Source: Verrucomicrobiota bacterium (GTDB taxonomy: Bacteria; Verrucomicrobiota; Verrucomicrobiia; Verrucomicrobiales; DEV007). From it: a DNA stretch of 27,804 bases. Every line of letters begins with the position of its first letter. The first letter of the stretch is position 1. Shown in pieces: positions 6,001 to 27,804 of the stretch. The notes under the pieces were generated by a model. That model was not told where the DNA came from. It searched no databases and was given only the letters and a program-made list of their open reading frames with translations. A program made the position numbers and the translations under genes. The DNA lies in NCBI GenBank assembly GCA_045046875.1, contig JASFYY010000145.1, forward strand, positions 1 to 27,804. Direction: 5' to 3'.

Positions 6001-9000
6001 CCTAACACAAAGGGGCTCGCCATCCACTCAGTGCCTGGCAAGGGCTCCAGCAGAAAATCGATAAGCGGGCGGATGGGTTTGATACCATCCGAAAATTTCA
6101 GCAAACTCTCAAAAATCGTGCCCTGCAAAAACCCTTCAACATCAACTTGAATGTTGTAAAAATCAAAGGCTGCACCGTCAATCAATTGACGATTGTAACG
6201 GAAAACCTGTGCTGAGAGTTCAAGTTGATCGTCTGTTGCATTACTAGTCCCATTACTCTGGTCGGCCAATACCACGTTGTAAGCAGCCATCGACGCCACC
6301 GCCAGACTTGTCACTCCGTCAGGTGCCAATACTCCCAAGTAATTCAACTGACTGGCACCAATTCCATAACGAATCTGCAAAGTAAACTCCGTCTGGATAT
6401 CAGGAATCCCTTGACCTCCTCCAAAAGAAGTCCCCGGTTTACCGCCCTCGATAAAAAGATGCAGATCCAGATCGCCATCTGTTTCAAAACTAAGCACCCC
6501 GAATTGGAAACTGCCAATCTGGCTTTGACCTGCCACCGGCAAAGCCGGATCAAGACCCAGAGTATTTCGACCCTGCATATCCTGAATCGTTGTGCGATTC
6601 AAATTAGTTCCGCCCGATCCCTGGTTAAGAAAAAAGTCAAAAGTCCCGTAAAAACCGGAAGCACTCAAAAAATCAGTCCCCAGCGAATACGGTCCCGGAG
6701 TGTCCCCCGCGTCCGCCACCTGTACCTGTAATTGATTCAAAGTGCTGCTTCGGGTGGACTGTTCGAATATCTGAACTCCAGCGGTATTGATATCTCCATC
6801 AAGCACCGCTTCGATATCAACTGACATCAGCGGGGTATCAACCCCATCCGTTGGATCATCCGCCGGATTGTAAAGATAAAACCCTTCCTGCAAGTCCACC
6901 CCGAAACCAAGATGCAAAGTAAAGGCCCGGCGCAAATTAATACCGCCTGTTGTCGGCGTATTAGTGACCGTCTGACCACTGATGGTTTGAGATACGGTAG
7001 CGGTATCAATGACCAACCCGGTTCCCGTCTGCGAGAGGTCAATGCGGTTAATATTGATTTCCGGCAAATCACTGAAGGTTTTAACCAGGTCCAGCGAAAA
7101 TTGCAAACTAACCGCGCTGCCAGGCACCACTTCAAATTCCTCATTCGCCGGGGTCAGGTCATAATTGCTCGCCGCATTGGGATCCCAAATCGTTGCCACT
7201 TCAGCTGCATCCAGCGTCTCGATTACGATTTCAGACTTAGTCGTCAAATATCCCTCACCGCCGGGCCCAAGGATCGCATACAAGGAATCAATAATCGCAT
7301 TGATCGGCTTGAGCTTGTTATTACGAAGCTCATCGCGAACCCGGTTGGTAAAATCACTGCGCCAGGTCTCAATGAAAACCGTTGAACTCGGCAAGTCGGT
7401 TCCCAACAGCGGAATATAGTTTCCCAGCGCCTGATCAATCGCAAACTGAAGATTAAACAATGCCAGGTCAAGAGCTTCTCCCATGATGAAGGGATCCCGG
7501 AGAATGTTCAACACGTCGACCGGTGGAATATTGCGACCCAGCGGCGGCAACTCGTCCCACGGCATGGTCGGATCGGTAAAGAAAACCGCGGGTGCCGGCA
7601 CCCCTGGTGTATTTGCCGGAACGGTCACATCAAAAAAGCGATCAAGTCCGGTACGAACACCTGTACCGTCATCGTAATTCAACACCCGAATATTGACCGG
7701 ATCAAAATCTGGCAGTGTCGCCACAAAAGCCGAATCCGCTTTTTGCGCGTCGGATAACTGGGAGGTATCCTTGGTGATCAAAATCTCATTGCCATTTTCA
7801 TCGGTAATGACAATAATCATCGGCAATAAGGCCTGCCCCTGACCATTGGGGTTCACGATGGCCCAGGAATTAAAACCTCCGGATCCATCTGCGTTCGAAT
7901 AAACCCGCTCCAAACTATTACTAAAATTAACGCTCACCCCGGCCGACAGCGCCGGCACGTTGTTATCCTGAATAAAACGAAATCCCCCATTGTCACGGCC
8001 TTCAGCTACCGCCACCCTCAGTTCGTCAAACTCAGCCCCGGTATCCGCAAACCCCACCCGAACCAGCTCCCACTTTTCGGAGGCATTGCCCACCGTTTTC
8101 ACCCGATAGATCCCATTCTGAAATTCAATGTTCGAGCTGCTATTCTGATCTTTCACCAGAATTAAATCATTCACCGCAATATCCGGCACGCCATCGATAC
8201 CCACCACTTGCCGTCCGTTCGCGAGGGTCGACAGAATCGAGTTCAGCGATTGGTTGGTTTTGGATTGCAAGCCCGGCTTACCATCAATGGTAGCAAAATC
8301 AGCAATCAATTCCCCCGTAGTAGCAACACGAACCAGATAAGGTAAAATCTGGTCGCCCTGTAAATTAATTTCAAAAGTTGCAGGATCAATAAAACGGGCA
8401 AAACGAACCGCATCCACTCCCAGATTCACAGGATCCTGCACCTGGATAAAATCCCTGCCAGCATAGGTACTGCCACCTGTCACCGATACAAATAGATCGT
8501 CCAGTTCTGCTGCAGTATTAGCAGCACTCACTCGCCTTAAGCGCCAGTTGGCATTGACGCCAGCACCACTGCCGTCACGTATAACAGAATAAACTCCATT
8601 GTAAGCGACATTGCCCTGATGGTTCACCAGTACGAGGTCGCCAATACTCACAGAAACTCCATCGATGACCAACTGCCCGCTTACATCTGCATCCAAACGA
8701 CCATTGGCAAGGGTCGGGTTGGTAAAAGTGCCTCCAAGATCCGCTGTCGTCGCCACGTCCACCGTCAAACCCGCAGGCTGCACATAACCTGCCTGCAGCA
8801 TTGCCTGATTATAAATCCCCGGAGTTCCATTGGCATCATCCACCGCCACTTCCCCATGTTTATTGACCGCCACCATGCCGTTCGACAAACGAAAACGTGC
8901 ATTTCCAACTGGCAGATCACCATTAAAATTTTCGCCAGCCAGGTTAACCAGAGTCGTGATCTGTGAAGTCTGGTAAAGCACCGCCCTCGGCTCCCTACTG

Positions 9001-12000
9001 ATTCCTCCGCGCACCACTTGAATCCCCAAATCAAGATCCAGATCCGCCAAAATACTCAGCTCCACCTCCATCGGGTTCGCCCCCGTGCTCGCTAGCGCGG
9101 AAAGTCCCGCCAGATAGTCATCCACAATCTCCGGATCACTAGAGCGATTGCGTAACTGGGCAAGGTCAACAAACAACGGCAAACTCGTCGCAAAGGCCTG
9201 CACAAAAGGCAGACTCAAATCAATGCTCGCTGACTCCAGAGCACCTGCATTATAAGTAGTGGAAAGTGATAAGCCGATATCAGCCAGATTCAGCTGAAAA
9301 ATCCCCGCCATCACATTTTTCAACTCCTGTAAGCTAGCGGGCTGAGCACTTTCAAGCCGCAGGATATACTGCTCTAACTCATATCCCAGATCAAACACAT
9401 CCACCAAACCGGACTTCACAAACAGCAACTTTGACTGAAAGGCATTCACCCCCGCCGCCGCCCCGTCTGGATCAATACGCATCTGATCCGAAATGTATTC
9501 CGCAGTTCGCAACAAGCCTTCAATGATATCCTCAAAACCCACCGTGTAGAGCATTTCCATGCCCAAGGTGTTATTATAAACCAAGTCAGGTGCTGGAAGG
9601 TTGGCAAAATCTGAAATCTTGCTGGCAGAAGGTCCCGCCATTCCAGTCAAGTCATGCTTCAATGTGATGGTAGCTCCTGGTCCGAAAGCCAGCCCGACAA
9701 AAGCTTCGCCCGTATCGGGATCCACAGGGAAACTCAGGTTACGTAACTCCAAGGTAGCGAAAGTCGTCGGATCCACCACCTGGGTGGATATCGAAGTCAG
9801 GTTGTTCGTGGCAGCGGCTGTATTCAGATCCACCAAGGTGAGGCGTCCGCCAAAACTGGTCGTCTCTTTGGCGACCAGATCCAAACGGCCGTCCCCTGCT
9901 TCGAAAGCGACAAAACCAAAGTGCCCTTTGGCACTCACCTGCTGATTCGTCACCGATGCAGTTCCCGTCAAAGCAATATTATTCAAGAAAACCTCACCAC
10001 CACGAGCCCCGATTCTTTGCTCTTCAGTTAGAAAGCCCAAAGTCGTGGTCGCGGTATTGGTCGGGATCGAATCGTCCGGCACAAATCGGAAAGTCCGCAC
10101 AATGGGATTACTATTCAGTGGATCCGAATTATCGAGTGAAAAAATTGCCACTCGCGAACCGCCTCCAAAGGTGCCCGCACGTAGAAAATCACTCAAATCA
10201 TAAGTCGCCCCGATGATAACCGGAGTCGCCGCCAATGCCGCATTGATATCACTGATCAAGTTCGCCATCGTCGGTGTTCCCACTCCCCCCGGTACCGTCA
10301 CTGTCACATAATCACTGCCATTGATCGAAATTTCGAACACCGCAGGGTTGCTCAACAAAAAGGGATTTGGTCCTTCAAGTGGTCGGGAAATGATCGACAA
10401 GCGAACATCCGTGATCGCCGAAGTTGCCGTTATTTCTTTAACGTAGAGTTCGGTGGAAACTGCATTCGGCTGTGGCTCGAAATAATTAGCCACTACCTCG
10501 AACGTCCAGGCTTCCGTAACATAAGATCCGTCATCCGGGAACACATTGGCATTCAGCCTGAATCCCACTTTCCCGCTATCATCGAAAGCTTCGATTTTGC
10601 CTTCGAACTCGGTGCTCAACTCCGCACTCTGCTGAATAGCAAAATTCAAGTCATCCAACAAATCCTGCATCGACGCATTACCCACCGTCTCACTGGCGTT
10701 GAGCACAAAGTCTCCGCTGTTACCATCAAAAAGATCAAAGTGAAAAAGCGCACGCGTCCCTGCATTCAAGCTAAATGACGGCAAATTGGTAGCCGTTACC
10801 GTATCAATCACTGTCGTTAGATTCGTCGAGCTGGCAACAAATCCCAAGTTGGTAATCGCTTCGTTAGGAGTCACAATTGAACTGGAGATCCTTTCCGGAA
10901 CCAGCACCTGGAACATTCTCGTATTCGTGATTGCCGGGTCTGCGGTGAACACCAATACCGAATAACGGCTGTCAGCACCAGCCTGAGCTGTCACACTGAC
11001 CTTGCCAATCAATCCCGCATCTGCATTGATCGCGGCCTGCACATCCGCGGCAAAATCAGAAGCGTCAGTATTGTCCGTCGTATCAATCGCATCGACTCGC
11101 AAATCGTGAATCACCCCGTCATCCAGAATCACCCGGATCAACCCGTCCGCTTGGATCTGCCCATCCCAGTCAGCAACCCCTACAGGAACCTCGAGCGTCA
11201 ACACTTCAGCCACAGAGGTATCAGGAACTAATCCCACTTCAAAACCAAAAGATGAATTGGTGGTGCGATCCACATCAACGCTGCTGTCGGTTGCCAGTTG
11301 GGAAATTTCCCCATATTTAGCCTCAAGCAACACATCCACCGCAGCCACCCCTGTCAGGCTGGTCGGGGTATAATCAAATTCGATCGGAAAAGTAATGCTC
11401 AAGCGAGAAGTATCAAAAACAGGCTGAGCAGCCCCTGCCAGTGGTCCCGCCGCTATGACCGCTGCAAACTCTTGCAAGCTGGTGAAGTCGGGCGAAATGA
11501 AACGCTTACTCAAAGCGAAAGAAGCTGATAGCCCATTGGTCGCCGGAGTGGTTCCAAAAGCCAAGTGCCCCAATCCTCCACTGATAGCCTGAATGGCAAT
11601 TTGGGAAATTTTTCCGGTAGCCTCACCAGGATTACGAGCGAAAAATTGCAAAGCCCCTGAATTGTCACCTCGCACATCAATCCCAGTGCCAGCAGCCTGA
11701 TCCAAGAGCGGGGTCAACACCCCAGCTGAAAATGTTGTATTTTTCAGACCATAACGAATATCATCAGCCAAATCCGACATCGCCACATTAGACGTGCCGG
11801 CAAGTCCAGTGGTGCGATTACCACTGAGGTAAGTTCGATAAGAGGTGGCCGTTCCATCAACAGTGATACTGAAGTCAATGTAATTGGAGGCCTGCAGGCT
11901 CGGTGTAAGTTTTAACTGGCTCAGACCCGTGCCAGCAATGCTCAGTCCGTAAATTTCTCCCGTCCCATAGACTCGAATTCCCTGCCCGCCACCGGCGAGA

Positions 12001-14201
12001 TCAAGCACATCCACCACCACCCCTTCCCCGGTCGCCCCATTGAACAATCCCTCTGCCTCCAGCACATCCCGCATCCGGGCAACCAGAGCGCCCACCCCAG
12101 AGTAACTTTGAATCGGGATCGTCACTGTCACCGCAGCAGCTCCGTTCACAGCAATATCGAAAGTCCTTACCGTGCTGAAATCAGTCACATCAATCGCCGA
12201 ACTTGAATCAAAAACTATTCCCCCTAGTTGGTATTCTGTCCCAGCAGCTACACCGTTGCCAAAATTCACACTGTCATTGGCCAGCACCACTTCCCCATAA
12301 GCATTGATCCCGATATCCAAAACCCCGTCACCAGCTGCCTGGAATCCGATAAAAGCAAACTGCCCGGGATCAGCGGCAAAAAACTCAATTCTAGGAGAGT
12401 CTGTATCCGTCACCCGGGCCTGCACCCCCGTCGCACCCCCCACCGATGCCGCAATCAGAGCCGTATTAATATCATCAACAATATCCTGCAGACTCGTGCG
12501 GGTCAGATCCTCGTTCACAAGTATCGTCGTCCATGTCCCACCGTTGACTGAAGTAGAAAAAGCCGTTCCCCCGGTATAATCGAGAGGATCCCTGACAAAA
12601 CCACCGCTCCCGTCATCACGCCAGGTGGAAGGCGCATTCACTGAAGTCAGCACCTGCTCAGCACTCTGCAATTGAGCCAGAAAAACCTGCCTAAAAGCTT
12701 CGCCAAAAGCAAAGGCATCCCCTTCATCGAGATTCAGGAAAGGCAACTGGTCGCGAAACAGCTCACTGTTATCCAAAGCCTCCGCCCAGGCCACAGTGGA
12801 GTCCACCATGTTAAGCAAATCTTTCGGAGCAATCCGCGAAAAAGCCGAAAGAGTCGCGTCCGTATTCACCAAGGGTGCCCGGTCATCAAATAGATTGTCG
12901 TCACTGAACTGCAACTGTCCGGTCACCCCATCCAAACCGCCGATGAAGGTATCGCCGGCCGGATTGGCCACCTCCACCTGAAAAATGGCGTCCACCGTAT
13001 TGGTCTGGAAACCACCACCGATCACACTCGCCTGACCCGTAGGGGTCTGTAAATCGTAAGCTATGGTCCAATCCGGAGTCCCTGCCCCCGAAATCAATTT
13101 GAACTCCGCGAGGTCAAATTTCGAATCCGCCGTGATCAGACTCTCGCCCCCGGAAAAATCAATCAGAGTCGTCACATCGAGCAGAAACTGCGCACTCGGC
13201 CCTGCTCCACCAGCGCCATCCGATGCGTCCACCCAAGCTCCCGCTCCCGTGCCGCCTTGTTGACCTCCGAGAATGCCAATCTGAATCCCAAAGTCATCCA
13301 ACCCGCCATAAGTTGTCGTCGTATGCTGGGCGATTGAGGTGGCATCGTAATTACCAAAATCCACCCAGTAGTTGCCGTCCTTACCCAATTCGGTCAGTTT
13401 TTCCGCGGTAGTAGGCGTGGCGGGGGGCCCTCCTACCAGGGTCGTCGGGTCAAGAATCGATAAATCCGCCCCGATGGAGAAGGACACCGAACGGTTGTTG
13501 GTAATGTTGATCGAAGTTCCGTCCTCAAGTCTCAAATTAAATTCTTCCGCCGCTTCACCCAGTTTCAAATTGGCTACTGACACCGTATCCGGCAAACCGA
13601 TCACCACATCCAATTGAAGGTTAAAAGCAGTCGAATTATCCGTTATCGTACCGATCATCCCAGAACCGAACAACGAACTATCCAGAGCCGTCTGCAAGCG
13701 CAACGCCAGTCCCGCTGAATCCGGACGATCATCCATCGTCACATCAGTGTCGCCATAGTTGGACAAATAAGCATTTATGTCGAGCTGCTCACCCACTTCG
13801 TCAGCCCAATTAAAATAACGCCCCACGTCATCACCCAGCACGTCTCTAAGGGTCTGGTCCAGCAAAGGGATACCCGAGCTGTCCAAAGTATTATTCAACG
13901 AACCATCGCTATTGAGAGCCTCGCCCAACTGCCCCAAATTAGTCAGTGTAGCGATAAACTGAGTCTTGATCGCATCCTGGGCCCCGCGAGCATCAGCCAC
14001 ATCATTAGCGCTATCCGCTTCGCTTACTGAAGCATCATACAGTGCTGCATTGAGCAGTAACCTCGGCTCCAAGGGCTCCACCGTAAAACCACCACTACCA
14101 CGTCGCCCGCCACTCTGTCGACCACGGAAACCACCATTGGATTTACCTCCCATTAAGAAGCGCTTCCATCCATCACGGGTACGATTAGCTTTACGAGACA
14201 T
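1..14201 (-). CDS. Giant LEPR-XLL leader-containing secreted/surface protein (>=4733 aa, 3' end beyond the window)
   Basis: ATG at 14199-14201 (minus) directly follows an in-frame TAG. It reads MSRKANRTRDGWKRFLMGGKSNGGFRGRQSGGRRGSGGFTVEPLEPRLLLNAALYD. The same frame is still open at base 3 (...DVVIHNTSGDILIDEIFAGI). Every segment I translated by hand is open, and the ORF track lists no minus-strand ORF ending in this frame, as expected if there is no internal stop. Composition is rich in G/D/T/V/N/S. An alternative start is M17 at 14153. Confidence 0.95.
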   Translation of the reverse strand, partial: MSRKANRTRDGWKRFLMGGKSNGGFRGRQSGGRRGSGGFTVEPLEPRLLLNAALYDASVSEADSANDVADARGAQDAIKTQFIATLTNLGQLGEALNSDGSLNNTLDSSGIPLLDQTLRDVLGDDVGRYFNWADEVGEQLDINAYLSNYGDTDVTMDDRPDSAGLALRLQTALDSSLFGSGMIGTITDNSTAFNLQLDVVIGLPDTVSVANLKLGEAAEEFNLRLEDGTSINITNNRSVSFSIGADLSILDPTTLVGGPPATPTTAEKLTELGKDGNYWVDFGNYDATSIAQHTTTTYGGLDDFGIQIGILGGQQGGTGAGAWVDASDGAGGAGPSAQFLLDVTTLIDFSGGESLITADSKFDLAEFKLISGAGTPDWTIAYDLQTPTGQASVIGGGFQTNTVDAIFQVEVANPAGDTFIGGLDGVTGQLQFSDDNLFDDRAPLVNTDATLSAFSRIAPKDLLNMVDSTVAWAEALDNSELFRDQLPFLNLDEGDAFAFGEAFRQVFLAQLQSAEQVLTSVNAPSTWRDDGSGGFVRDPLDYTGGTAFSTSVNGGTWTTILVNEDLTRTSLQDIVDDINTALIAASVGGATGVQARVTDTDSPRIEFFAADPGQFAFIGFQAAGDGVLDIGINAYGEVVLANDSVNFGNGVAAGTEYQLGGIVFDSSSAIDVTDFSTVRTFDIAVNGAAAVTVTIPIQSYSGVGALVARMRDVLEAEGLFNGATGEGVVVDVLDLAGGGQGIRVYGTGEIYGLSIAGTGLSQLKLTPSLQASNYIDFSITVDGTATSYRTYLSGNRTTGLAGTSNVAMSDLADDIRYGLKNTTFSAGVLTPLLDQAAGTGIDVRGDNSGALQFFARNPGEATGKISQIAIQAISGGLGHLAFGTTPATNGLSASFALSKRFISPDFTSLQEFAAVIAAGPLAGAAQPVFDTSRLSITFPIEFDYTPTSLTGVAAVDVLLEAKYGEISQLATDSSVDVDRTTNSSFGFEVGLVPDTSVAEVLTLEVPVGVADWDGQIQADGLIRVILDDGVIHDLRVDAIDTTDNTDASDFAADVQAAINADAGLIGKVSVTAQAGADSRYSVLVFTADPAITNTRMFQVLVPERISSSIVTPNEAITNLGFVASSTNLTTVIDTVTATNLPSFSLNAGTRALFHFDLFDGNSGDFVLNASETVGNASMQDLLDDLNFAIQQSAELSTEFEGKIEAFDDSGKVGFRLNANVFPDDGSYVTEAWTFEVVANYFEPQPNAVSTELYVKEITATSAITDVRLSIISRPLEGPNPFLLSNPAVFEISINGSDYVTVTVPGGVGTPTMANLISDINAALAATPVIIGATYDLSDFLRAGTFGGGSRVAIFSLDNSDPLNSNPIVRTFRFVPDDSIPTNTATTTLGFLTEEQRIGARGGEVFLNNIALTGTASVTNQQVSAKGHFGFVAFEAGDGRLDLVAKETTSFGGRLTLVDLNTAAATNNLTSISTQVVDPTTFATLELRNLSFPVDPDTGEAFVGLAFGPGATITLKHDLTGMAGPSASKISDFANLPAPDLVYNNTLGMEMLYTVGFEDIIEGLLRTAEYISDQMRIDPDGAAAGVNAFQSKLLFVKSGLVDVFDLGYELEQYILRLESAQPASLQELKNVMAGIFQLNLADIGLSLSTTYNAGALESASIDLSLPFVQAFATSLPLFVDLAQLRNRSSDPEIVDDYLAGLSALASTGANPMEVELSILADLDLDLGIQVVRGGISREPRAVLYQTSQITTLVNLAGENFNGDLPVGNARFRLSNGMVAVNKHGEVAVDDANGTPGIYNQAMLQAGYVQPAGLTVDVATTADLGGTFTNPTLANGRLDADVSGQLVIDGVSVSIGDLVLVNHQGNVAYNGVYSVIRDGSGAGVNANWRLRRVSAANTAAELDDLFVSVTGGSTYAGRDFIQVQDPVNLGVDAVRFARFIDPATFEINLQGDQILPYLVRVATTGELIADFATIDGKPGLQSKTNQSLNSILSTLANGRQVVGIDGVPDIAVNDLILVKDQNSSSNIEFQNGIYRVKTVGNASEKWELVRVGFADTGAEFDELRVAVAEGRDNGGFRFIQDNNVPALSAGVSVNFSNSLERVYSNADGSGGFNSWAIVNPNGQGQALLPMIIVITDENGNEILITKDTSQLSDAQKADSAFVATLPDFDPVNIRVLNYDDGTGVRTGLDRFFDVTVPANTPGVPAPAVFFTDPTMPWDELPPLGRNIPPVDVLNILRDPFIMGEALDLALFNLQFAIDQALGNYIPLLGTDLPSSTVFIETWRSDFTNRVRDELRNNKLKPINAIIDSLYAILGPGGEGYLTTKSEIVIETLDAAEVATIWDPNAASNYDLTPANEEFEVVPGSAVSLQFSLDLVKTFSDLPEININRIDLSQTGTGLVIDTATVSQTISGQTVTNTPTTGGINLRRAFTLHLGFGVDLQEGFYLYNPADDPTDGVDTPLMSVDIEAVLDGDINTAGVQIFEQSTRSSTLNQLQVQVADAGDTPGPYSLGTDFLSASGFYGTFDFFLNQGSGGTNLNRTTIQDMQGRNTLGLDPALPVAGQSQIGSFQFGVLSFETDGDLDLHLFIEGGKPGTSFGGGQGIPDIQTEFTLQIRYGIGASQLNYLGVLAPDGVTSLAVASMAAYNVVLADQSNGTSNATDDQLELSAQVFRYNRQLIDGAAFDFYNIQVDVEGFLQGTIFESLLKFSDGIKPIRPLIDFLLEPLPGTEWMASPFVLGDFLGSGFTSFASTIVRLDDMVRGIGVGSSADPKPSWAKPRVRMGIGGSIWNKIKTTAGKDSRLTKERNNIEKYKNERDTAREKARQNREDDEVGRGIRFVLDGETDDRSALKRMKDSLNEKATTPNKFSKRFEKFRNDGFAKNENDGKLKAYVKKKSNEALTLNNDSAKAKKSPIFGITGGGFRLDFAKQENVVKILMGQEANLTFLELPRVEVGVAVTKSFPLPAFPPLIATVGFSISVNINLKFGWDTEGFYWSTLNLDGQPSPAFGILARFNVGVALSLGLIEAGIEAFFELQVDFNWNDVTVDKNKANAVSSFQPVDTEAYPFPPSFGDPGTPGYGKLRNSQIDYLKNLPGADLKMGNLFDVTLTGRIGLTFYVDLTIPVPFVGPITKRILEKTFAMDLFQVTFFAEKPGIQLATVSGSTLDLNTGSRAALRIFNDTRAVNEVYTLTSDGVSGSTENITVTAILNGVTYTQSFTGISLVRGSLGSGESIIDASALTRALVDLNGGSGNSTLYAGKGNSGGGKNRLTGGEGTATLFGSVNRSSILRAGQANTTIIGGTAADDIYSGQRSDVLDGGGGGDTYYFENGFGRDRLIVTGLGNTADFSGVTSDLTFDLGRLVQSAKTGLNTVFFAPDASGSNSIDSWIGGSGDDRFNTFFFAPDKTLNLEGGAGADFYAVTLGNPTKRYFADTNPGASTLLGQMDPRNIGHININDLSNDGWVLIKQTFPERISYSVNGINNGREQAVMSGINRVDLDAGNATVVWGDLATEWLDLGIGSTVTAGTIEMRSSVEAEGLTLNLKRSFSVTERLVMRNNSNLQLNIQNIDPLGDSSLFIGPAPLSQSPEGTVGIYSSDTAVFDGSYDPSSWNGNGSGYIDINLPTGSLFNVSSIATGVIEALGANGEVAIAVRDTIGFDTDPVKINATWLAAKTTTSLATLAQGINIISDRDIKITKIRDIDGLSTISGAIRLAVAPGQKIVLGRLVAGGGRDVILEADEVTLDVAGRTEWRPEVESYLQPVTVNYSYQIWEQRTVPVWFWTYYYWEQITIYSSYTYYVTAYRDVQVAYTIPPIPGGGIIDTSGDVYIRNVTDDYDIRVADVVPQANTLNVTQSVLNTITNQAKAIIIGRDEAETLNSGVVSILNYDFDTSLILKGAQINILGQDAVPGTSALTSTNFFELHAYEGAGDGGIHFNNANGSSSVVAPSIFATAFRDISVNTLLSSTPDNGLIRLIAGSGASTTGAADNTGDLNVGAVGSVQATGLNSNVILKSGAAGGAMSISGNVTADDRITLEALGGGVTVNAPARLSSSKLNFEAALSSVLRTAVDDIISGRIINGTLGGAADLTIDELDGLTLTLLETDAGTVDVTAGGAIVVDKVIGGTLPSLFDVTLDAQGGALTRVVPNPGEANVVGDALVVTALGGVTLDTAVNSLDIRALNTVGKGDVAINNVNGQASPLLINRILTNDGAIQVDTEGSMNARLVRSQTDAAANTIVLRTRDLFGGAILLDVIDAGNTGDVTIDAGGFTLGSLPSGGTVLSDSSTTGRITANNLIVNARGYPVFVDTFDLGIDLRTTVNNVSAKTFTAGNPAEANSAVGIRIDETDAIGLVELETFLGDITVTAGGTITHDSVRAPNRDIFLTSTGGSILSNDINGDTFQKIFGRELTALATGDIVMDTTVDGITADSTVAGDLTITESDSVLLRSITTNVGDIDITSGEFAAGVITKGGSIQADLVRAGAGGADDVTLTAYGTLRTAGQPVTTLLPVNGGKIHGALFTATSYGALDLITNVATLIAENFTIGNMTIVEDDAVNVQRLVSTSGSIDLTAGGTIVADYVESINDIDQTNTFDINLRATAGDILIDRIDAGGNFNDVTLTADLGSINEVNPQDAPDGFVAPDNSGIDLVADHAIINAFGSIGGLRPIEIRLNSLEAHSNNNGAIDLNEFDAIDLQLVDTADGSITVDAGGQITIGSLRSLTDDDANDVVIHNTSGDILIDEIFAGI
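3..1300 (-). repeat. Beta-helix-type repeats (~105-135 aa), at least four copies, filamentous-haemagglutinin-like
   Basis: Copies read LRTTVNNVSA..IRIDETDAIGLVELETFLGDITVTAG, MDTTVDGITA..GDLTITESDSVLLRSITTNVGDIDITSG, LITNVATLIA..GNMTIVEDDAVNVQRLVSTSGSIDLTAGG and IEIRLNSLEA..GAIDLNEFDAIDLQLVDTADGSITVDAGG. Looser beta-rich sequence extends to ~3700. Confidence 0.8.
3969..4484 (-). repeat. Degenerate RTX-like (GGxGxD) nonapeptide cluster, probable Ca2+-binding beta-roll
   Basis: LNGGSGNSTL, LTGGEGTATL, IGGTAADDI, LDGGGGGDTYYFENGFGRDRL, IGGSGDDRF and LEGGAGADFY. Confidence 0.8.
7923..8762 (-). repeat. Two tandem ~120-135 aa repeats of the VxVATT...IDGV...LVKDQ...NGIY...W-x-L-x-R type
   Basis: Copy 1 (8762-8400): VDVATTADL..IDGVSVSIGDLVLVNHQGNVAYNGVYSV..WRLRRVSAANTAAELDDLFVSVTGGSTYAGRDFIQ. 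Copy 2 (8333-7923): VRVATTGEL..IDGVPDIAVNDLILVKDQ..QNGIYRV..WELVRVGFADTGAEFDELRVAVAEGRDNGGFRFIQ. Confidence 0.85.
10140..12570 (-). repeat. About six degenerate 70-90 aa protein repeats, consensus F-x-I-x-V-N/D-G ... D-L-x-x-D-I-N-x-A-L/I (flagellin hook IN-like)
   Basis: Copies read FSTSVNGG..SLQDIVDDINTAL (~12570-12375), FDIAVNGA..GALVARMRDVL (~12165-11960), FSITVDGT..MSDLADDIRYGL (~11880-11640), IRVILDDG..ASDFAADVQAAINA (~11160-10940), FHFDLFDG..MQDLLDDLNFAI (~10760-10555) and FEISINGS..MANLISDINAAL (~10345-10140). Confidence 0.75.
14052..14081 (-). other. LEPR-XLL (planctomycete extracellular-type) N-terminal motif, VEPLEPRLLL
   Basis: Direct translation FTVEPLEPRLLLNA, preceded by an R/G-rich segment with no hydrophobic h-region. 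Confidence 0.92.
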
Positions 14202-14261: not shown

Positions 14262-14420
14262 GGGAATGTACCATTAAACTGCACTAATGCATCCATTTTT
14301 TCCCAATTCACTACGGGAAGTCAAAGGAATTTCTAACTTTATTCGATAACGCCACGAAGCCCATTAGACAGAGCCTTTCATATACGCATTCAAGTAGTTG
14401 TATTAGAAAGGGTTACAAAC

Positions 14421-16415
14421 CTACATCCTTCTCGATTCTGGCACAAAACTGAGATGCTCATCGACCCAGGTATCCATCTTGAGCACCGATTTACGTTGAC
14501 TGGCCCCCAAGCGATCTGACGCCTTTTGAGCATGACGTATACAGGACAGGGCAAGTCTTTGATAACCAACAGATTGAGCCATGGAAGCCAACTTAAGACG
14601 TTTTTTCATAAATTTCGGCAAAAATCGCGCTATCAGCTCGTCATCCACACTGAGATATGCCCTTACACTGCCCGGATCTCCCTGACGTGCCGTCCGCCCC
14701 ATCAGTTGCCGATCAATACGCCCGGAGAAATTTGGATCGACCAGGATCACATGCATGCCCCCTATTTCCAGCTCCGGACCAGCTATCTTCACATCGGTTC
14801 CACGTCCCGCCATGTTCGTGGCAATGGTCACCGCCCCCTTTTTTCCAGCTCGCGCAACAACATCGGCTTCATCCTTGTGGCGAACGGCATTGAGCACATC
14901 ACAGACCACACCCCGGTCCTTCAACATCTCCGCCAGGATTTCACTTTCTTCCACGGTCCGAGTGCCTACCAGCACCGGCCGCCCCTGCGCGTGAAGCTCT
15001 TCGATGTCATGGATGATTGCTTCCCGCTTTGAGTCACTGCTACCAAATACCGCCATCGGTTCAACATGGCGCAAACAAGGTCGGTGCGTGGGAATTTTCA
15101 CCACCGCCAATCGATACAAAGTCCAAAGCTCGCCCGCAGCTTCCCAAGCTGTTCCTGACACCCCGGAGATATGCCGGAACATTCTAAAAAAACGCTGGAA
15201 ACTCATGCTTGCCAAAGTCTCCGTAGGATCTGTCGACGTGATTCCTTCTTTCGCTTCAATCGCCTGGTGCAGGCCCTGCTTCCAGGTTCGCCCCGGCATC
15301 AGACGACCGGTGAATTCATCAATGATCTCCACCTTTCCTTCTAAAATCGTGTAGTGGGAGTCCCTATCAAAAAACTCCTCCGCCACCAGCGCTTGTCGAA
15401 CCAACTCCTCACGCCTGTCGGGACTCCTCCAAATGGGAGACAACCGATGCCGCTGACGGTCAATCTGGTATTCTCCCGATGTTCGAAACACAATTTCATT
15501 ACGCGCATGATCAATGGAAAAATCACGCCCCGCCTTTAGGGACATGGCAATCTCCCGTGCGACACGACAACATTCAGCAAAATCATCCGCCTGGTGTTTT
15601 CTACTGATTATCAAAGGAGTTACCGCCTCGTCAATGAGCACACTGTCCGCTTCATCAACTATCACCGTATGAATCCCGCGCATCACCTGCTCACTGCCCC
15701 GCTCTCCCATCTGGCTACTGAACAAGTGTCTCACCAACTGCTGGGACGGAGCCTGGTCCTCACCGACCTTCAAGCGATCTCTCAAGTAGTCAGCCAATAG
15801 CTCCTGACTGGTGGTATAGACCACCCCGCATGCGTAAGCATCACGACGCCCATCAGGCTCCATCTTACCCGTTACAAACCCAACTTCCACGCCGGCAAAT
15901 CGATAAAAATCCCGCAAACTTTCCGCATCCCGTTCAGCCAGATAATCATTCACCGTGATGACATGCACGGGATAACCGGACCATGCGAGGATCAGGCTTC
16001 CCAGCGCAATCGTTAACGTCTTCCCCTCACCGGTTGCCATCTCAGCAAACAAACCTTGCTGAATAGCCAACGCTCCCATGACCTGCTCTTCATAGGGAGT
16101 CATGCCAAGCACTCGTTCGGAGATAACCACCAGACAAGCCATCGCCTCCCTGGCTCCCCCCACATCCAGGGATCCGCGTCTCGCGTCTCCATGAAGACGA
16201 ATCACCTCCTCTCTGAGCTCCTTTTCGTCGAGCCCCTTGAAACGTTGCGCGGAAATTTTGAGCACCTTGCGCGCTTCACGCCGCAGACGCCGCTTAACAC
16301 CTGCACGCCGTCTCCAGCGCCCAATGGTCGACAATACAAGCCTATCCATCCCCTCTGGAATGGATACCGTCTTGCGTGCCGCATTGCGATAGTAGCGCTG
16401 ACTAGGTGTGATCAT
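14421..16415 (-). CDS. SecA-like DEAD-motor ATPase, short accessory paralogue (664 aa) lacking most of the C-terminal scaffold/wing region
   Basis: SecA motifs present: MATGEGKT (Walker A), VHVITVNDYLAERD, IVDEADSVLIDEAVTPLIIS, GLHQAIEAKEG, GRPVLVGT, IATNMAGRGTD and RIDRQLMGRTARQGDPG. Only about 80 aa follow the last motif, and there is no C-terminal Cys/His zinc site. Confidence 0.93.
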   Translation of the reverse strand: MITPSQRYYRNAARKTVSIPEGMDRLVLSTIGRWRRRAGVKRRLRREARKVLKISAQRFKGLDEKELREEVIRLHGDARRGSLDVGGAREAMACLVVISERVLGMTPYEEQVMGALAIQQGLFAEMATGEGKTLTIALGSLILAWSGYPVHVITVNDYLAERDAESLRDFYRFAGVEVGFVTGKMEPDGRRDAYACGVVYTTSQELLADYLRDRLKVGEDQAPSQQLVRHLFSSQMGERGSEQVMRGIHTVIVDEADSVLIDEAVTPLIISRKHQADDFAECCRVAREIAMSLKAGRDFSIDHARNEIVFRTSGEYQIDRQRHRLSPIWRSPDRREELVRQALVAEEFFDRDSHYTILEGKVEIIDEFTGRLMPGRTWKQGLHQAIEAKEGITSTDPTETLASMSFQRFFRMFRHISGVSGTAWEAAGELWTLYRLAVVKIPTHRPCLRHVEPMAVFGSSDSKREAIIHDIEELHAQGRPVLVGTRTVEESEILAEMLKDRGVVCDVLNAVRHKDEADVVARAGKKGAVTIATNMAGRGTDVKIAGPELEIGGMHVILVDPNFSGRIDRQLMGRTARQGDPGSVRAYLSVDDELIARFLPKFMKKRLKLASMAQSVGYQRLALSCIRHAQKASDRLGASQRKSVLKMDTWVDEHLSFVPESRRM

Positions 16416-16416
16416 T

Positions 16417-18588
16417 TCAGGTTTGATTGAGATCCTTTTGAATCACTTGCCGGAACAAACGCCACCACTGGATGAAAAAGGGTTCTGGCTGAAGTTCAAA
16501 ACGGATTTGTCCGGAAGCATTTTCGTACAGGGTCATGTCGGCAATCTGGTCAGCATTCAATTCGGCCGTCACCTGGTAAAACCCTTCCTTAACCGCCGTT
16601 CCACTGTCATCCTTTTTATCCACTTCCAGCTCCCCCCCAGCACTCCACGCCAAAGCCGCCGTCGACAGTTTCTCCAAATCGGCTTGCAGAATATCCTGCG
16701 ATATCACCTCGATCTCCTGTCCCGCCTGGCCGCGTAATCGAACACTCGATCGCTGGATTTCCTTGGTGAACAGATCAGCTGCCCCGCGTTGATTCACCAC
16801 CGCAATAAATTGATAAGAGCCCGGGTCAATCACCTGACCTACCTCGGTGCCCCGGGGCACCCAGGTGCCCACCATTTCCCGACTGGAGGGAGCCACCCAG
16901 ATGCCTGCGTGCGGAGCCGATACCTTCAGCTCGGTGCGCTGACGTTCCAGTTCTTCGAGATAGGTCACTGCCGCCTTGAACTCACGCTGCAAGGGTCGCA
17001 GAATCGAAGTGTATTTCTGCTGCCTGGCCAGCTCAACCTGTTGCCGGAGTTGATCCAGACGTGATTTCATCGAATCAATTTCCATCGCAAGTTCCGGATT
17101 TTCCAATACCACCAGCAAGTCCCCCTTGGCGATCGTCTTTGTCGAATGTTGATGGACTTCTGCAATATAACCCGAGGTGTTGACAAAAACTCCCGTTCTC
17201 TCTTCAGCACTGATCACTCCAGAAGCCCGCAAGCTCCGGGGCGCAGGCAAATAACCTAACAGAGCAATGGCAATCAGAAGAAAAAATGCCACCACAACCA
17301 AAGCTCGCCTGCGCACCCGCAGCAAACGATCACTGGTGAATAAATAACGAACGAATTTCCCCGCCGGCAAAATGAAATACATGAACACACAAAAACCGGC
17401 GATCGCCAACCCGACTCCCAAAAAACTCTGCGCCACATAAAATGTGATCACCGCCAACAACACAATGCGATAACAAAAGGCCGCCACCCCATAAGTCGTC
17501 AGCCACCAGGCTTCTGAAGCACTGTCAGCCGGACTGAAAGCCGCACGCACTCCGAGTAGATATTTTTCCGCCAGAAAACGGATCTGGTTTTGTGCCCGTT
17601 GATACAGATTGGGTATTTCAAAATAATCACTAAACAAATAATAACCATCAAAACGCAGCAAGGGGTTGATGTTAAATATCAAAGTCGACACCGAGGCGAT
17701 GAACATGACATTGTAAGCCAACTTGTTCACAAAAGGATCCCCGGAATTCGCCCAGAGAAGAGCCGCCAAACTAGCAATAAAAAACTCTACCCCCATCCCT
17801 GCACCGTCCACCAACAGCCGTTGCCACTTTTTTCTAAAACTCCAGCTCCAGGTCGCATCGACAAACGGAAGCGGTGTAAAAATCATCAGCATCACTCCAA
17901 ATTTGTGAACCTCTCCGCCAAATTGTTTGCAAGCCACCGCATGCCCGGTCTCGTGAATCAACTTTAGGAAAACCATGCACAAGTACATGTAGATAAGATT
18001 GGACGGAGCCAACACACCCGCACTCTGGTCCACCAGGGCATCAAAATTGGAAATCGCCGTTTTGCCACCCCAGGCGACAACAAGCAGCCATAACAACACC
18101 CCCAGTGGCGTGAACAATAATCGTGTTACCGGTCGTATCGCATCCAGAAAACGATTCGGATCGAAGATCGGAATCTGCATGAAAAGAAAGTTCAAGGCCT
18201 GGCCGCGGAACTTTTTACGCCAGCCTTTACGGTATCTCTCAAACAATTGCTGACTGTCAGGAGCAAAAGAGGAACTCAGTAAATTGGCTTTATACAACTG
18301 GGACAAAACCTGGATCACCTCTTCTTGTCCCGGCGCATCTTCAGGATAAAGCGCCAGACACTCCCGCCAAACTTCTTCAAGGGTGCGGTCACCTCTCAGT
18401 CGTCCGATCAATGCGTAAGCAGCGGGTGATACCCGGTAAAATTCATTGTTTAATGGATCTCTCAACAAGAACCACCGCTGCCCGCGGAACACCTGGCGAG
18501 TCACCTCAACCGATGGGCTCAACCGGACTCGCTCCTGGGCAATCCGGTGCCACGAGTCGCTGAACATCTGTTGTTCTTGTTTAGCCAT
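16417..18588 (-). CDS. PqqD/RRE-like domain + M50 (site-2) zinc metallopeptidase + HlyD-type membrane fusion domain (723 aa)
   Basis: HETGH zinc motif at 17941-17955 and NINPLLRFDG at ~17644-17673 lie among multiple TM segments. The N-terminal ~100 aa has the 3-strand/3-helix PqqD-like pattern (WFLLRDPLNNEFYRVSPAAYALIGRLRGDRTLEEVW...VLSQLYKANLL). The C-terminal half has lipoyl half-motifs (VFVNTSGYIAEV..IAKGDLLVVLEN; VSAPHAGIW..VPRGTEVGQV) around a coiled coil. Its stop is 1 nt from the secA-like ATG. Confidence 0.9.
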   Translation of the reverse strand: MAKQEQQMFSDSWHRIAQERVRLSPSVEVTRQVFRGQRWFLLRDPLNNEFYRVSPAAYALIGRLRGDRTLEEVWRECLALYPEDAPGQEEVIQVLSQLYKANLLSSSFAPDSQQLFERYRKGWRKKFRGQALNFLFMQIPIFDPNRFLDAIRPVTRLLFTPLGVLLWLLVVAWGGKTAISNFDALVDQSAGVLAPSNLIYMYLCMVFLKLIHETGHAVACKQFGGEVHKFGVMLMIFTPLPFVDATWSWSFRKKWQRLLVDGAGMGVEFFIASLAALLWANSGDPFVNKLAYNVMFIASVSTLIFNINPLLRFDGYYLFSDYFEIPNLYQRAQNQIRFLAEKYLLGVRAAFSPADSASEAWWLTTYGVAAFCYRIVLLAVITFYVAQSFLGVGLAIAGFCVFMYFILPAGKFVRYLFTSDRLLRVRRRALVVVAFFLLIAIALLGYLPAPRSLRASGVISAEERTGVFVNTSGYIAEVHQHSTKTIAKGDLLVVLENPELAMEIDSMKSRLDQLRQQVELARQQKYTSILRPLQREFKAAVTYLEELERQRTELKVSAPHAGIWVAPSSREMVGTWVPRGTEVGQVIDPGSYQFIAVVNQRGAADLFTKEIQRSSVRLRGQAGQEIEVISQDILQADLEKLSTAALAWSAGGELEVDKKDDSGTAVKEGFYQVTAELNADQIADMTLYENASGQIRFELQPEPFFIQWWRLFRQVIQKDLNQT

Positions 18589-18629
18589 TCTGAATTCTAA
18601 CTTCTAACTCCTGACGCCTGACGCCTGAC
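18588..18629. repeat. Degenerate heptamer tandem array, 6 units
   Basis: TTCTGAA TTCTAAC TTCTAAC TCCTGAC GCCTGAC GCCTGAC fills most of the 49-bp gap between the two HlyD-type genes. Confidence 0.85.
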
Positions 18630-18637
18630 ATCTTCCC

Positions 18638-20539
18638 TCAAAGCCACAGTTTTAATCGCAAAAAGTCGATTGCCCTATGGGTGAATATCCACAAAGGACT
18701 GCGGATCCCTGCGTCAATTTTTGCCAAACCACTCATCCCTGGTCGCCACCAGCCCGACTCAGCGCCTTCCCGTGAAACCTCCACACGCATAATGAAACGG
18801 TTTCCCTCCTGATCAGGAATAGCAACCGGCTCGATCTCCTTGATCACAAACTTAAACCGGATTCCAGGTCGACTGGCAAACGACAGTTCCCCTGTTGCTC
18901 CTACATTCACATCGGCAATATTCCGCTCGTGCACCTTGAACTCGGCATACATGTCCTCAATTTTCCCCACCTTGAATAGAGCCTCTCCTTTCTCCACCGG
19001 ATAACCCAAACGCTCCTTCAAGTCACCCTCCACCACCACCCCTGCGATTGGTGAAAGCACTTCCGCCTTGCTCAGCGAGTACTGGACCTTCATCAATTGA
19101 GCGCGTGATTCCTCAACCTTGGCCAGGGCAATCTGCATCTCACCAATCCGTGAATCTGATTTTGCCAGCTTAGCCTCACTCAAATTACGCTCCACCGCAG
19201 CACTCAATTCCGCCACATGCAGCGTCAGCTCCGCATCATCCAACTTGGCTAGTTTCTGCCCCGCTTCAACCGCATCCCCAGGCTCAACTTCAACCGTATT
19301 CAAATAACCCACATAAGGCGCCGGCACATGATACATCTCTTCGACCCGCAGTTGAAACGGAGCCTCGATTTTATATTGCCAAGGATAATAAGACAAAAAA
19401 CCCAGTAAAGTCACCAGCAAGATCACTAAGAGTTTTGTCCAGGTGTGTTCAACTCCAAATACCCAGCTCAACGCTCGCCGCGCCCCTGAAACAATTTTTG
19501 CCCCAATCCACCGATCTCGCCTTTTGAGATCATCCAAACGGCGGATCACTAAATCCGAGATCAGTCGCAAACCATCCAAATCCTCCTCCACAAAATCCAC
19601 CGAACCTCTCTCCAAAGTGATCACCGCCACCGCCTCGTCATCCACCCGCAGAGGAATCGATGCCAGTCGCGACACCGCCTCTCGACGCGAATACGCCTCA
19701 TGATCCCGGTCGATCGATTGCAAGCCACCCGCAGGCGGCCAGACGATTTCATCATTCTGCTCCAGACATTCTTCCATAGCAGCGGACAAGTAACGACCCA
19801 ACTCCGACTTTCTGGAAACACGATCCACATGACTCGTCGCGATCAAACGAATCGTATCTCCCTGACGCCAGCCAATCGAAACCCGATCAGCATGGCATCC
19901 CGAAGCCAACTCATTACAAACCGTCATCGCTGCCGCTAAAAAGCGCTCTTCTTCATTTAGCCGTAAAGATAAATTGATCGCCAAAGCCGAAGCCTCGCGG
20001 TCGGAATGGTGCCCATCACCTTCACCATCAGCTCCCGCCACCAAGTTCACCAAAGGGTTTGCCCCCCATATCAATGGGGTGTCCCGCATCAACTGGGCAT
20101 TTCTAGTTGGAGGATGAAAAAAATCATCTTCTCCATAACGCAGAAAAACCGCCACACAAATCTCATCCGGACGCTCCAAACATAGTGAAAGCGCCGCCAT
20201 CCTAACCCCTTCTTCCTCTCCAAAAACCACCCCCCCTCTACTGCCCTGCTCTAAACTTTTTTCCCAACTCCTCTTCGCCAGGTCAAGCAATATCTCACGC
20301 TGACTGTAAAGGCGCTGACGAGTTTCCTCAGCCTCCGGCCAGTGAGCAATCGGCAACCATTCACCCTCACCCTCTCCATTATCCGCATCAGATCCTTGGG
20401 AAAAAAAAACTACCCCACTGGCAGCGTCGAGTTGACTAGCAAATATCCGCAAAAGCTCATTCCAGAAAACACCCTCTTCCCCGGAAAAACTCCACAACTC
20501 TTCCAGCGGCTCACGTTTTTTCGAATTCAACAACGACAT
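18638..20539 (-). CDS. GAF-domain-containing HlyD/efflux-RND periplasmic adaptor (membrane fusion protein, 633 aa)
   Basis: GAF-like region (ADRVSIGW..AAMEECLEQ..LASIPLRVDDEAVAVITLER) with a probable second degenerate GAF N-terminal to it. One TM (LLVILLVTLLGFLSYYPW). Lipoyl halves (VPAPYVGYLNTVEVEPGDAVEAGQKLAKL; VLSPIAGVV..VEKGEALFKV) flank a helical hairpin, followed by an RPGMSG motif. Confidence 0.9.
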   Translation of the reverse strand: MSLLNSKKREPLEELWSFSGEEGVFWNELLRIFASQLDAASGVVFFSQGSDADNGEGEGEWLPIAHWPEAEETRQRLYSQREILLDLAKRSWEKSLEQGSRGGVVFGEEEGVRMAALSLCLERPDEICVAVFLRYGEDDFFHPPTRNAQLMRDTPLIWGANPLVNLVAGADGEGDGHHSDREASALAINLSLRLNEEERFLAAAMTVCNELASGCHADRVSIGWRQGDTIRLIATSHVDRVSRKSELGRYLSAAMEECLEQNDEIVWPPAGGLQSIDRDHEAYSRREAVSRLASIPLRVDDEAVAVITLERGSVDFVEEDLDGLRLISDLVIRRLDDLKRRDRWIGAKIVSGARRALSWVFGVEHTWTKLLVILLVTLLGFLSYYPWQYKIEAPFQLRVEEMYHVPAPYVGYLNTVEVEPGDAVEAGQKLAKLDDAELTLHVAELSAAVERNLSEAKLAKSDSRIGEMQIALAKVEESRAQLMKVQYSLSKAEVLSPIAGVVVEGDLKERLGYPVEKGEALFKVGKIEDMYAEFKVHERNIADVNVGATGELSFASRPGIRFKFVIKEIEPVAIPDQEGNRFIMRVEVSREGAESGWWRPGMSGLAKIDAGIRSPLWIFTHRAIDFLRLKLWL

Positions 20540-20705
20540 TTGTTCAGATCAATAACAATAAGGGTAAATCCAGACAGTGAGTCCATTAAGCTATTCATTC
20601 AAGTCTATTCCATTTTCAATCTTCAATTCGTTTTCATCCATGTTTATGAATTTTATAAATATTTTATGAGATTTTGTAATCCACCCCGTGTTTATTGAAT
20701 CCATT
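20540..20705. promoter_or_regulatory. AT-rich divergent intergenic region, likely holding the promoters for the export operon and the hydrolase gene
   Basis: The flanking genes diverge and the region is visibly AT-rich. Imperfect palindrome TTTATGAA-T-TTTATAAA at 20643-20659; TTTATGA recurs at 20643 and 20663. Confidence 0.5.
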
Positions 20706-27407: not shown

Positions 27408-27804
27408 TTAGTCTTGCCCGCGATATTCCACCACCTTATTCCTCAAATCCCGCAACACCCGTAACTCTCCCCACTGCGCCCCGTGCATCTTCCTACCCCC
27501 GTCCTTGCGTCGCTCTCCAAAAGACTCCCGTCTCCCCGCAAAAAACTCATCCACAAAGCCCTGACTCCCCAACACCGCCCCATCAGTAAAATACCGCACC
27601 CGACAGCGCAAAGCCGCCGCCAAAGGCAACTTGCCCCCCGCCTGCAACACCTCATCAATCTCCTCCCGCGTAAATCCCCCCTTCCGCCGATCCACTCCAT
27701 CCGGCGTAACCCCACCCAAGCGCTCCTCCCCCGTCCCATACAACAAACACCGATATTCCGCCTCCACCGTCCGCCAAGCCACCCTTTGCCGCCCCATCAC
27801 CGCA
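27408..27804 (-). mobile_element. C-terminal part of a probable REP-associated/IS200-like (Y1 HUH) transposase; 5' end outside the window
   Basis: LRCRVRYFTDGAVLGSQGFVDEFF..RESFGERRKDGGRKM..LRDLR matches my recollection of the C-terminus of verrucomicrobial Y1 transposases. The frame is open to the window edge. The catalytic HUH/Tyr motifs are not visible here. Confidence 0.65.

Follow-up and report, generated by a model that had tools for sequence, protein, structure and literature searches.

This analysis concerns a 27,804-nucleotide stretch of DNA from a Verrucomicrobiota bacterium (positions 1 to 27,804 of contig JASFYY010000145.1, assembly GCA_045046875.1; "the window" below means this whole stretch), and within it an operon of four tightly packed minus-strand genes encoding proteins of 633, 723 and 664 residues and then a giant open reading frame (ORF). 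The 723-residue protein appears to fuse a RiPP recognition element (RRE; RiPPs are peptides made on the ribosome and modified after translation) to an M50 intramembrane metalloprotease and a HlyD-like adaptor domain, and a LEPR-type motif, carried near the N-terminus of the giant protein, is tightly linked to this protease-adaptor family by both gene adjacency and genome co-occurrence. The trio formed by a GAF-HlyD protein, the RRE-M50-HlyD protein and a short SecA paralogue is very probably tied in function to LEPR-XLL proteins, and we lean towards the reading that the protease-adaptor, the GAF-HlyD adaptor and the SecA ATPase, which has no wing/scaffold domain, make up a dedicated machine for proteins with a LEPR-XLL leader, here the giant neighbour. 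The features in question are the following.

18638..20539, minus strand: trio gene 1, 633 residues; GAF domain, single transmembrane helix and periplasmic HlyD-type adaptor (Pfam)
16417..18588, minus strand: trio gene 2, 723 residues; predicted fusion of an RRE (PqqD-like), an M50 intramembrane metalloprotease and a HlyD-like domain (ORF, Pfam, NCBIfam, AlphaFold2)
18274..18531, minus strand: predicted RRE/PqqD-like winged-helix domain, residues 20-105 of the 723-residue protein (Pfam PqqD, AlphaFold2, VIA-align)
17941..17955, minus strand: HETGH zinc-binding/catalytic motif, residues 212-216 (homologue alignment)
17644..17667, minus strand: NPLLRFDG motif, residues 308-315 (homologue alignment)
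16420..17247, minus strand: predicted periplasmic HlyD-like adaptor domain, residues 448-723 (NCBIfam, AlphaFold2)
14421..16415, minus strand: trio gene 3, 664 residues; short SecA paralogue (Pfam, NCBIfam)
3..14201, minus strand: giant protein of at least 4733 residues, running off the contig end; proposed substrate (ORF)
14043..14087, minus strand: LEPR-XLL leader motif FTVEPLEPRLLLNAA, residues 39-53 of the giant protein (NF012209)

Association of the LEPR-XLL motif with the protease

The N-terminus of the giant protein is basic (11 K/R and 1 D/E among residues 1-38) and is followed directly by FTVEPLEPRLLLNAA; within it, FTVEPLEPRLLL at 14052-14087 corresponds to residues 39-50. The sole NCBIfam match of the protein is to LEPR-XLL, a curated domain (NF012209), at residues 39-54, and this match exceeds the cut-off of 17 whether the search is made with the first 500 residues (22 bits) or with all 4733 (19.1 bits). 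Across the 4733 residues no Pfam family was matched, the giant gene is free of DNA tandem repeats, and the first 500 residues of its product, the C-terminus of which lies beyond the contig end, contain no hydrophobic segment of the signal-peptide kind. Having no classical signal peptide, the giant protein needs another route out, and it is unlike the usual repeat-built adhesins.

The motif and the protease occur in largely the same genomes. Taking a protease match with an E-value of 1e-100 or less as an orthologue and a match to NF012209 as the motif, we found the motif in 29 and the orthologue in 30 of 401 Verrucomicrobiota genomes; 27 genomes had both, two the motif only, three the orthologue only and 369 neither. 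In 16 of the 27 double-positive genomes the two lie within 25 kb of each other on one contig. Among the exceptions, in the motif-only genome G398 a divergent trio lies directly behind a 4660-residue motif ORF, the orthologue-only genome G222 has a LEAR-variant ORF that the hidden Markov model missed, and genome G231 has just a weak 22-bit match. NF012209 was also matched in 27 of 301 Planctomycetota genomes, 23 of which have a protease match at 1e-100 or less; in the other four the match lies between 1e-75 and 1e-83, and in one case a contig end truncates it. At the looser threshold of 1e-30 a protease match was present in 79 of the 301 Planctomycetota genomes. Many of the assemblies in these counts are fragmented.

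Gene order gives a second line of evidence. With a profile of the protease we fetched 80 related loci from contigs of one genome per species, their sources including Verrucomicrobiota, Planctomycetota, Desulfobacterota, Spirochaetota and other labelled groups. The full trio is present in 60 of these loci, a GAF-HlyD homologue being encoded upstream of the M50 gene in 76 and a SecA-like gene directly downstream of the protease in 63. Eleven of the 17 loci without the SecA-like gene have 302 bases or fewer left downstream of the protease gene; the remaining six (L025, L039, L047, L055, L056 and L069) have at least 5.8 kb of downstream sequence and no SecA-like gene by BlastP at 1e-10; these six may have the SecA paralogue at another site or be able to do without it. 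Three of the six (L047, L056 and L069) are planctomycete loci with motif ORFs nearby and no SecA-like gene within at least 7.6 kb downstream.

A large ORF with an N-terminal motif adjoins the trio in 24 of the 80 loci (25 matches), and a control with reversed sequences gave none. Together with that of the window these matches provide 26 leaders, with the consensus F-[EQ]-[LV]-E-x-L-E-[PQ]-R-[LVI]-L-L-S-[AG]-D, in which conservation extends to positions left free by the search pattern (S in 18, A or G in all 26 and D in 14). Most of the motif ORFs exceed 1000 residues, and 21 of the 26 run off the end of their locus, which has a 10-kb flank. In the genome of the window itself, all 5.59 Mb of it, a strict regular expression for the motif matched once, in the giant neighbour.

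Two loci deserve separate mention. Behind the single trio of locus L004 stand tandem motif ORFs, one of 273 codons (14324-15118) and one of at least 1970 codons (15307-21215), and both leaders read FEFE(A/C)LEQRVLLSAD; one machine may therefore serve several substrates. In genome G402 (the source of locus L010) a LEPR-XLL match at positions 51858-51929 of contig C80 opens a frame of 17,246 codons, and the trio is on a different contig. As this carrier lies away from its trio, loci with no adjacent motif ORF can still have a carrier elsewhere in the genome.

Domain composition of the operon proteins

The stretch that first drew attention (18270-18540, minus strand) corresponds to residues 17-107 of the 723-residue protein, and the earlier note had placed there a PqqD-like domain fused to an M50 peptidase, with no small precursor or RiPP-modifying enzyme nearby. 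Profile searches bear out the first of these points. Among 44 homologous N-terminal domains, 30 match Pfam PqqD (PF05402) with E-values of 0.01 or less (best 4.6e-7), and other NCBIfam models of the PqqD family are matched as well (PQQ PqqD by 11, ApyI by 6, ScmD by 5, lasso PqqD by 2 and the daptide protease by 2). Of 2360 representative proteins, the best 150 include 149 with the domain at the N-terminus, the full-length ones being ~700-750 residues long. An AlphaFold2 model of the domain, built from a 44-row alignment (mean pLDDT, the predicted local distance difference test score, 77.7), predicts three strands (28-34, 37-44 and 49-53) followed by three helices (55-61, 70-80 and 88-100), which again agrees with a PqqD-like domain.

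Comparison of this model with solved RREs, which the earlier note had called for, gave a divided result. In a VIA-align search of 48,161 representative Protein Data Bank (PDB) chains, five solved RREs stand within the top nine: the leader-bound lasso B1 protein 6jx3_B (Z 8.8, 83 of 85 residues aligned), the leader-bound TbiB1 5v1u_A (8.5), TigE (8.0), PqqD 5sxy (7.9) and the RRE of PbtF 8t19 (7.2). Scores of this size have to be read with caution, a Z of 7-8 being a typical best score in such searches, and unrelated winged-helix proteins scored alike (NovN 8.9, Rv2067c 8.6). Foldseek found nothing in the PDB at an E-value of 0.001 or less, its values for RRE structures being weak (0.014 to 0.1), and a search of the sequences of solved structures with a profile of the domain returned only two chance-level pectinesterase rows (E ~2). 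The window protein itself scores 20.1 bits (8e-4) against Pfam PqqD over its whole length, below the cut-off of 23.4 bits, and 23.4 bits, equal to the cut-off, when its N-terminal 135 residues are searched in isolation. We nevertheless accept an RRE/PqqD-type fold as predicted for this domain because the sequence matches and the enrichment of RREs among the structural matches point to it together; the structural scores alone would be insufficient.

The best-conserved elements of the domain are strand 3 (3.38 bits) and helix 3 (3.25 bits), compared with 2.92 bits overall. In known RREs these two elements form the leader-binding groove. Co-folding of the domain (residues 1-125) with residues 1-70 of the giant protein, made without controls, gave scores of 0.12 and 0.15 against a mark of 0.32, which speak neither for nor against binding. 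Ahead of the predicted fold, in a region modelled with low confidence, there is also an FS[DE]SW[YH]R stretch (residues 9-15 of the 723-residue protein; 18544-18564, minus strand), of which F9, S12 and W13 are conserved in 98-100% and R15 in 93% of the 44 homologues, this stretch being one of two peptide patterns used to retrieve the protein family.

The protease motifs of the 723-residue protein are intact, as the earlier note had read them: H212, E213 and H216 of HETGH and N308, P309, D314 and G315 of NPLLRFDG, which we take to be the third zinc ligand region of site-2 proteases, are invariant in all 21 aligned homologues, and in the full-length AlphaFold2 model the two motifs lie in helices 195-222 and 285-311, respectively. 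The match to Peptidase_M50 (PF02163) reaches 24.8 bits, below the gathering cut-off of 27.2, and many homologues carry a precomputed PF02163 label; judged by sequence, the protein is a divergent member of Peptidase family M50. Its best family match is to the daptide intramembrane metalloprotease model NF041824 (residues 22-410, 1.3e-49), at 169.4 bits against an equivalog cut-off of 300, and a further match is to the YydH/LiaK NCBIfam model (5e-9). The full-length model (pLDDT 77.0) predicts, after the RRE at residues 20-105, a basic linker helix (110-131), membrane helices (144-446) and a domain rich in beta strands that includes a coiled-coil hairpin (448-722; helical hairpin 498-552). This last domain would be the HlyD-like adaptor, for which the NCBIfam matches (RND_mfp 6.8e-9, NHLM_micro_HlyD 1e-5) are both far below their cut-offs. 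The last transmembrane helix spans residues 429-447 and the loop preceding it (408-428) has 7 K/R, because of which a cytoplasmic RRE and a periplasmic HlyD-like domain would fit.

Of the two neighbouring proteins of the trio, that of 633 residues matches HlyD_D23 (4e-17), HlyD_3 (4e-13) and GAF (3.1e-6) in Pfam and has one hydrophobic segment (366-384). The 664-residue protein matches SecA_DEAD (7.7e-86), SecA_PP_bind (7.4e-24) and P-loop_SecA (2.4e-49), and the same Pfam scan found neither SecA_SW (the wing/scaffold) nor SEC-C. Its Walker motifs are intact, with GEGKT at residue 129, DEAD at 254 and TNMAGRGTD at 533. It scores 535-540 bits against the canonical SecA models TIGR00963 and NF009538, whose cut-offs are 800-814 bits, the SecA equivalog giving 539.7 bits against 814, and matches the accessory SecA2 models TIGR04397, TIGR03714 and TIGR04221 with E-values of 1e-121 to 1e-144, also below cut-off. 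The housekeeping SecA of the same genome is encoded on another contig; it has 1071 residues, a SecA_SW match of 1.2e-56 and SEC-C.

The gaps between the four operon genes are, in order, 49 nt, an overlap and 219 nt, and no plausible small ORF for a precursor lies inside them; no RiPP-modifying enzyme family is found among the proteins encoded in the whole window, so that this third point of the earlier note also stands. The remaining genes of the window encode ordinary enzymes (a ceramidase-like protein, a xylose-isomerase-like TIM barrel, a HAD hydrolase, a ThuA-like protein and a pyridoxamine-phosphate oxidase) and a BamB-like propeller. Two ORFs, one of 159 residues (23259-23738, plus strand) and one of 130 residues (27408-27800, minus strand), match no Pfam family at an E-value of 0.001 or less. 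Between positions 14000 and 20800 neither promoter-like sites (7 versus 6.1) nor terminator-like sites (6 versus 7.4) were more frequent than in shuffled sequences.

Relation to described systems

The gene set of the trio has been described before. In a comparative genomics study, Kamneva, Poudel & Ward (2015, PLoS One, PMC4452313) reported "secondary SecA_DEAD domain proteins" without SecA_SW beside GAF, Peptidase_M50 and HlyD proteins in Planctomycetes, Verrucomicrobia, Proteobacteria and others, which by the description in their main text is the same set as in the window (GAF-HlyD, Peptidase_M50/HlyD and SecA_DEAD without SecA_SW). They suggested a role in a type-I-like secretion and proposed the M50 protein as a possible transmembrane pore, the biological role being called completely unknown. 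Among the carriers they name Methylobacterium extorquens AM1, with genes META1p2399-2402. The main text of that paper does not mention PqqD, LEPR, a leader or giant proteins and names no substrate; what is new relative to its description is the RRE, the LEPR-XLL substrates and the co-occurrence counts. We found no literature that joins LEPR-XLL, an RRE and this locus, nor any that combines a site-2 protease, HlyD, SecA and a RiPP recognition element, in searches that lay outside subscription journals and supplements.

The nearest precedent from experiment is the daptide pathway. According to its description (10.1101/2023.03.08.531785), the RREs that led to the discovery of that pathway are fused N-terminally to an intramembrane site-2 protease, the homologue MpaP being described as a leader peptidase, so that the architecture of an RRE on an M50-type intramembrane protease is the same as ours. 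In daptide precursors ELExMEAP immediately precedes the core, and a different RRE of that pathway is reported there to require Leu(-7) and Met(-4) for recognition. This sequence resembles the E-[LV]-E-x-L-E-P-R of LEPR-XLL leaders, with the same acidic/hydrophobic i, i+3 pattern, and the two may be aligned over E-[LV]-E-x-L-E. There are clear differences: NF041824 has 379 positions and no HlyD domain, unlike the 723-residue protein, and daptide substrates are short peptides served by modifying enzymes and ABC (ATP-binding cassette) transporters of their own, none of which is present at the window locus. The genes of the daptide context (Thr-ending precursors, aminotransferase, methyltransferase) are likewise not found in the window. 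By its sequence the 723-residue protein is a relative of the daptide protease, not a member of that family.

The earlier note had likened the motif to the lasso leader pattern YxxPxL. That likeness fails, as the Pro of FTVEPL stands at i+4 and not at i+3, and its column is occupied by A in nine, P in four, G in three and other residues in the rest of the 26 leaders. By analogy, the daptide leader as described in the source above would be the better precedent. What survives of the earlier interpretation is the RRE assignment and the tie of this protein family to the LEPR leader; what falls is the lasso analogy.

Other secretion systems share part of the logic. C39 peptidase-containing ABC transporters working with HlyD/TolC and the type I secretion of giant adhesins resemble the proposal in leader-guided export, in a protease built into the exporter, in HlyD-type adaptors and in very large substrates; they differ in that the window locus has a SecA-like ATPase, an M50 metalloprotease and an N-terminal signal, with no ABC transporter and no C39 domain. 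RTX-type substrates of type I secretion have a C-terminal signal. Adaptors typical of type I secretion are present here, but there is no ABC transporter in the operon and no OEP-family gene on the contig, the ~15 such genes of this genome all lying elsewhere. The accessory SecA2 systems of Gram-positive bacteria and mycobacteria are alike in dedicating a second SecA to a few special substrates, and differ in that here there are no SecY2/Asp genes, the partners are a protease and adaptors, and the wing/scaffold and SEC-C are missing. Finally, giant proteins of Omnitrophota (10.1101/2023.11.21.568195) are described as containing embedded SecA DEAD and preprotein-binding domains without scaffold/wing, thought to serve their own export; there the SecA part lies inside the giant protein, whereas in the window it is a separate 664-residue gene product in an operon with the RRE-protease, and that text does not mention M50, HlyD or PqqD.

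A putative export machine and its alternatives

In the machine that we favour, the RRE would bind the leader core F-x-[LV]-E-x-L-E-P-R-x-L-L in the cytoplasm and the leader would be passed to the M50 active site, to be removed there or held at the membrane. The SecA-like motor would push the long polypeptide across the inner membrane, and the two HlyD-type domains would join to an outer-membrane duct encoded elsewhere. We consider export across the envelope through such a duct the probable outcome; cleavage of the leader by the M50 core is plausible, and here we are more hesitant and would put it a little short of an even chance.

Several points weigh against this reading. To the below-threshold and non-specific matches of the RRE and M50 domains given above must be added that 56 of the 80 loci have no motif ORF in the sequence examined, and that, among the 62 loci whose flank reaches 6 kb or more, 42 show none. 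The Verrucomicrobiota genomes G281 and G169 have the orthologue and no motif in the 14.9-18.9 kb examined, and six Planctomycetota genomes have a strong protease match (1e-100 or less) and no NF012209 match. The 1e-100 boundary was picked after the distribution in Verrucomicrobiota had proved bimodal, that in Planctomycetota being less clean, and the co-occurrence tables overstate significance because related genomes are not independent. Of the distant loci considered below, 14 of the 18 inspected have no neighbour that fits the search pattern. The window contains no membrane channel, ABC transporter or TolC gene, and any coupling of a SecA without wing/scaffold to a channel is putative.

The foremost alternative, which we consider unlikely, keeps the export of LEPR-XLL proteins by the trio and the docking function of the RRE, and makes the M50 protein a conduit or gate in place of a cutter, with the leader being kept or removed by another enzyme. 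PMC4452313 does put forward the M50 protein as a candidate for a transmembrane pore, and the operon encodes no other polytopic membrane protein. However, no HExxH or NPxxxxDG residue varies among the 21 homologues, as is expected of an active protease more than of a simple conduit, and the daptide homologue is described as the leader peptidase.

The remaining question of which component reads the leader is informed by a class of remoter RRE-M50-HlyD proteins (24-31% identity), which we found in ~60 further Verrucomicrobiota genomes. In four of 18 loci of this class that were inspected, neighbours carry an N-terminal [FL]-x-[LIV]-E-x-L-E-[TQS]-R-x-L; the housekeeping SecA is the sole SecA of the four genomes concerned, and two of their four proteases have weak PqqD matches. 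The motif thus accompanies the protease-adaptor in genomes without a short SecA, which indicates that it travels with the protease-adaptor and not with the SecA paralogue, and its presence there favours the protease-adaptor as the reader. The comparative data bear on this indirectly, and the RRE is probably the reader of the LEPR-XLL motif, a view we hold with some reserve. In two small genomes (G132 and G093, ~2.3 Mb) we also noted paired short ORFs of 114-220 codons whose N-termini read FEIEALESRxLFAAAA(I/V)PHH (L098, 18062-19020; L102, 2044-2872), ~7-9 kb from a distant RRE-M50-HlyD gene, with no short SecA in either genome; these may represent a version of the same recognition system for small substrates.

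It is quite unlikely, by comparison, that the preprotein cross-linking domain of the short SecA reads LEPR-XLL while the RRE binds a partner protein, a regulatory peptide or some other part of the substrate. Such a role would be in keeping with the retention of SecA_PP_bind by the paralogue (7.4e-24) and with the basic N-terminus and short hydrophobic run of the giant protein, a faint echo of a signal peptide. Against it stand the motif neighbours beside distant M50-HlyD genes in the four genomes with only a housekeeping SecA, the motif ORFs of L047, L056 and L069, where no SecA-like gene lies within at least 7.6 kb downstream, and the acidic/hydrophobic i, i+3 pattern of the motif, which resembles an RRE-read leader and not a signal peptide.

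M50 enzymes are best known for signalling by regulated intramembrane proteolysis, and it might be supposed that the protease frees a membrane-tethered factor on a signal sensed by GAF, the giant gene being merely co-regulated. Besides this best-known role of the family, the fusion of a GAF sensor domain to the first adaptor would speak for such a function. We regard it as improbable, since the operon has no gene for a sigma or anti-sigma factor, the fusion to HlyD-type adaptors and the coupling to a SecA-type motor indicate transport, and the genome-wide co-occurrence with one specific N-terminal motif would be left unexplained. That the trio matures or exports a small ribosomal peptide encoded elsewhere, of the daptide or YydF kind, and adjoins the giant gene by coincidence is highly improbable: the best NCBIfam matches are to RiPP proteases (daptide 1.3e-49, YydH/LiaK 5e-9) and in the two small genomes the motif is on ORFs of only 114-220 codons, but the window has no short precursor or modifying enzyme, the single motif carrier of its genome is the giant neighbour, and motif ORFs extend past the end of their locus in 21 of 26 cases and mostly exceed 1000 residues.

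Returning to the dedicated machine, we would venture, more tentatively than for any of its steps, that it represents a previously undescribed class of envelope-spanning secretion in which an RRE-site-2 protease-adaptor and a wing-less SecA take the place of the type I ABC transporter, and in which an E-L-E-x-L-E-P-R leader, evolutionarily related to that of daptides, addresses proteins of a few hundred residues to more than 17,000 codons for export and clipping. The proposed binding pair consists of a 125-residue domain and a peptide of ~20 residues, and the motif together with the trio would provide a simple rule for predicting substrates. If the reading is correct, RiPP-style leader recognition has been co-opted to guide some of the largest proteins of bacteria to a dedicated exporter. 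This would give a purpose to the "secondary SecA" of Gram-negative bacteria and to the curated, functionless LEPR-XLL domain, and would explain how giant proteins with no signal peptide leave the cytoplasm in Verrucomicrobiota, Planctomycetota and other phyla.

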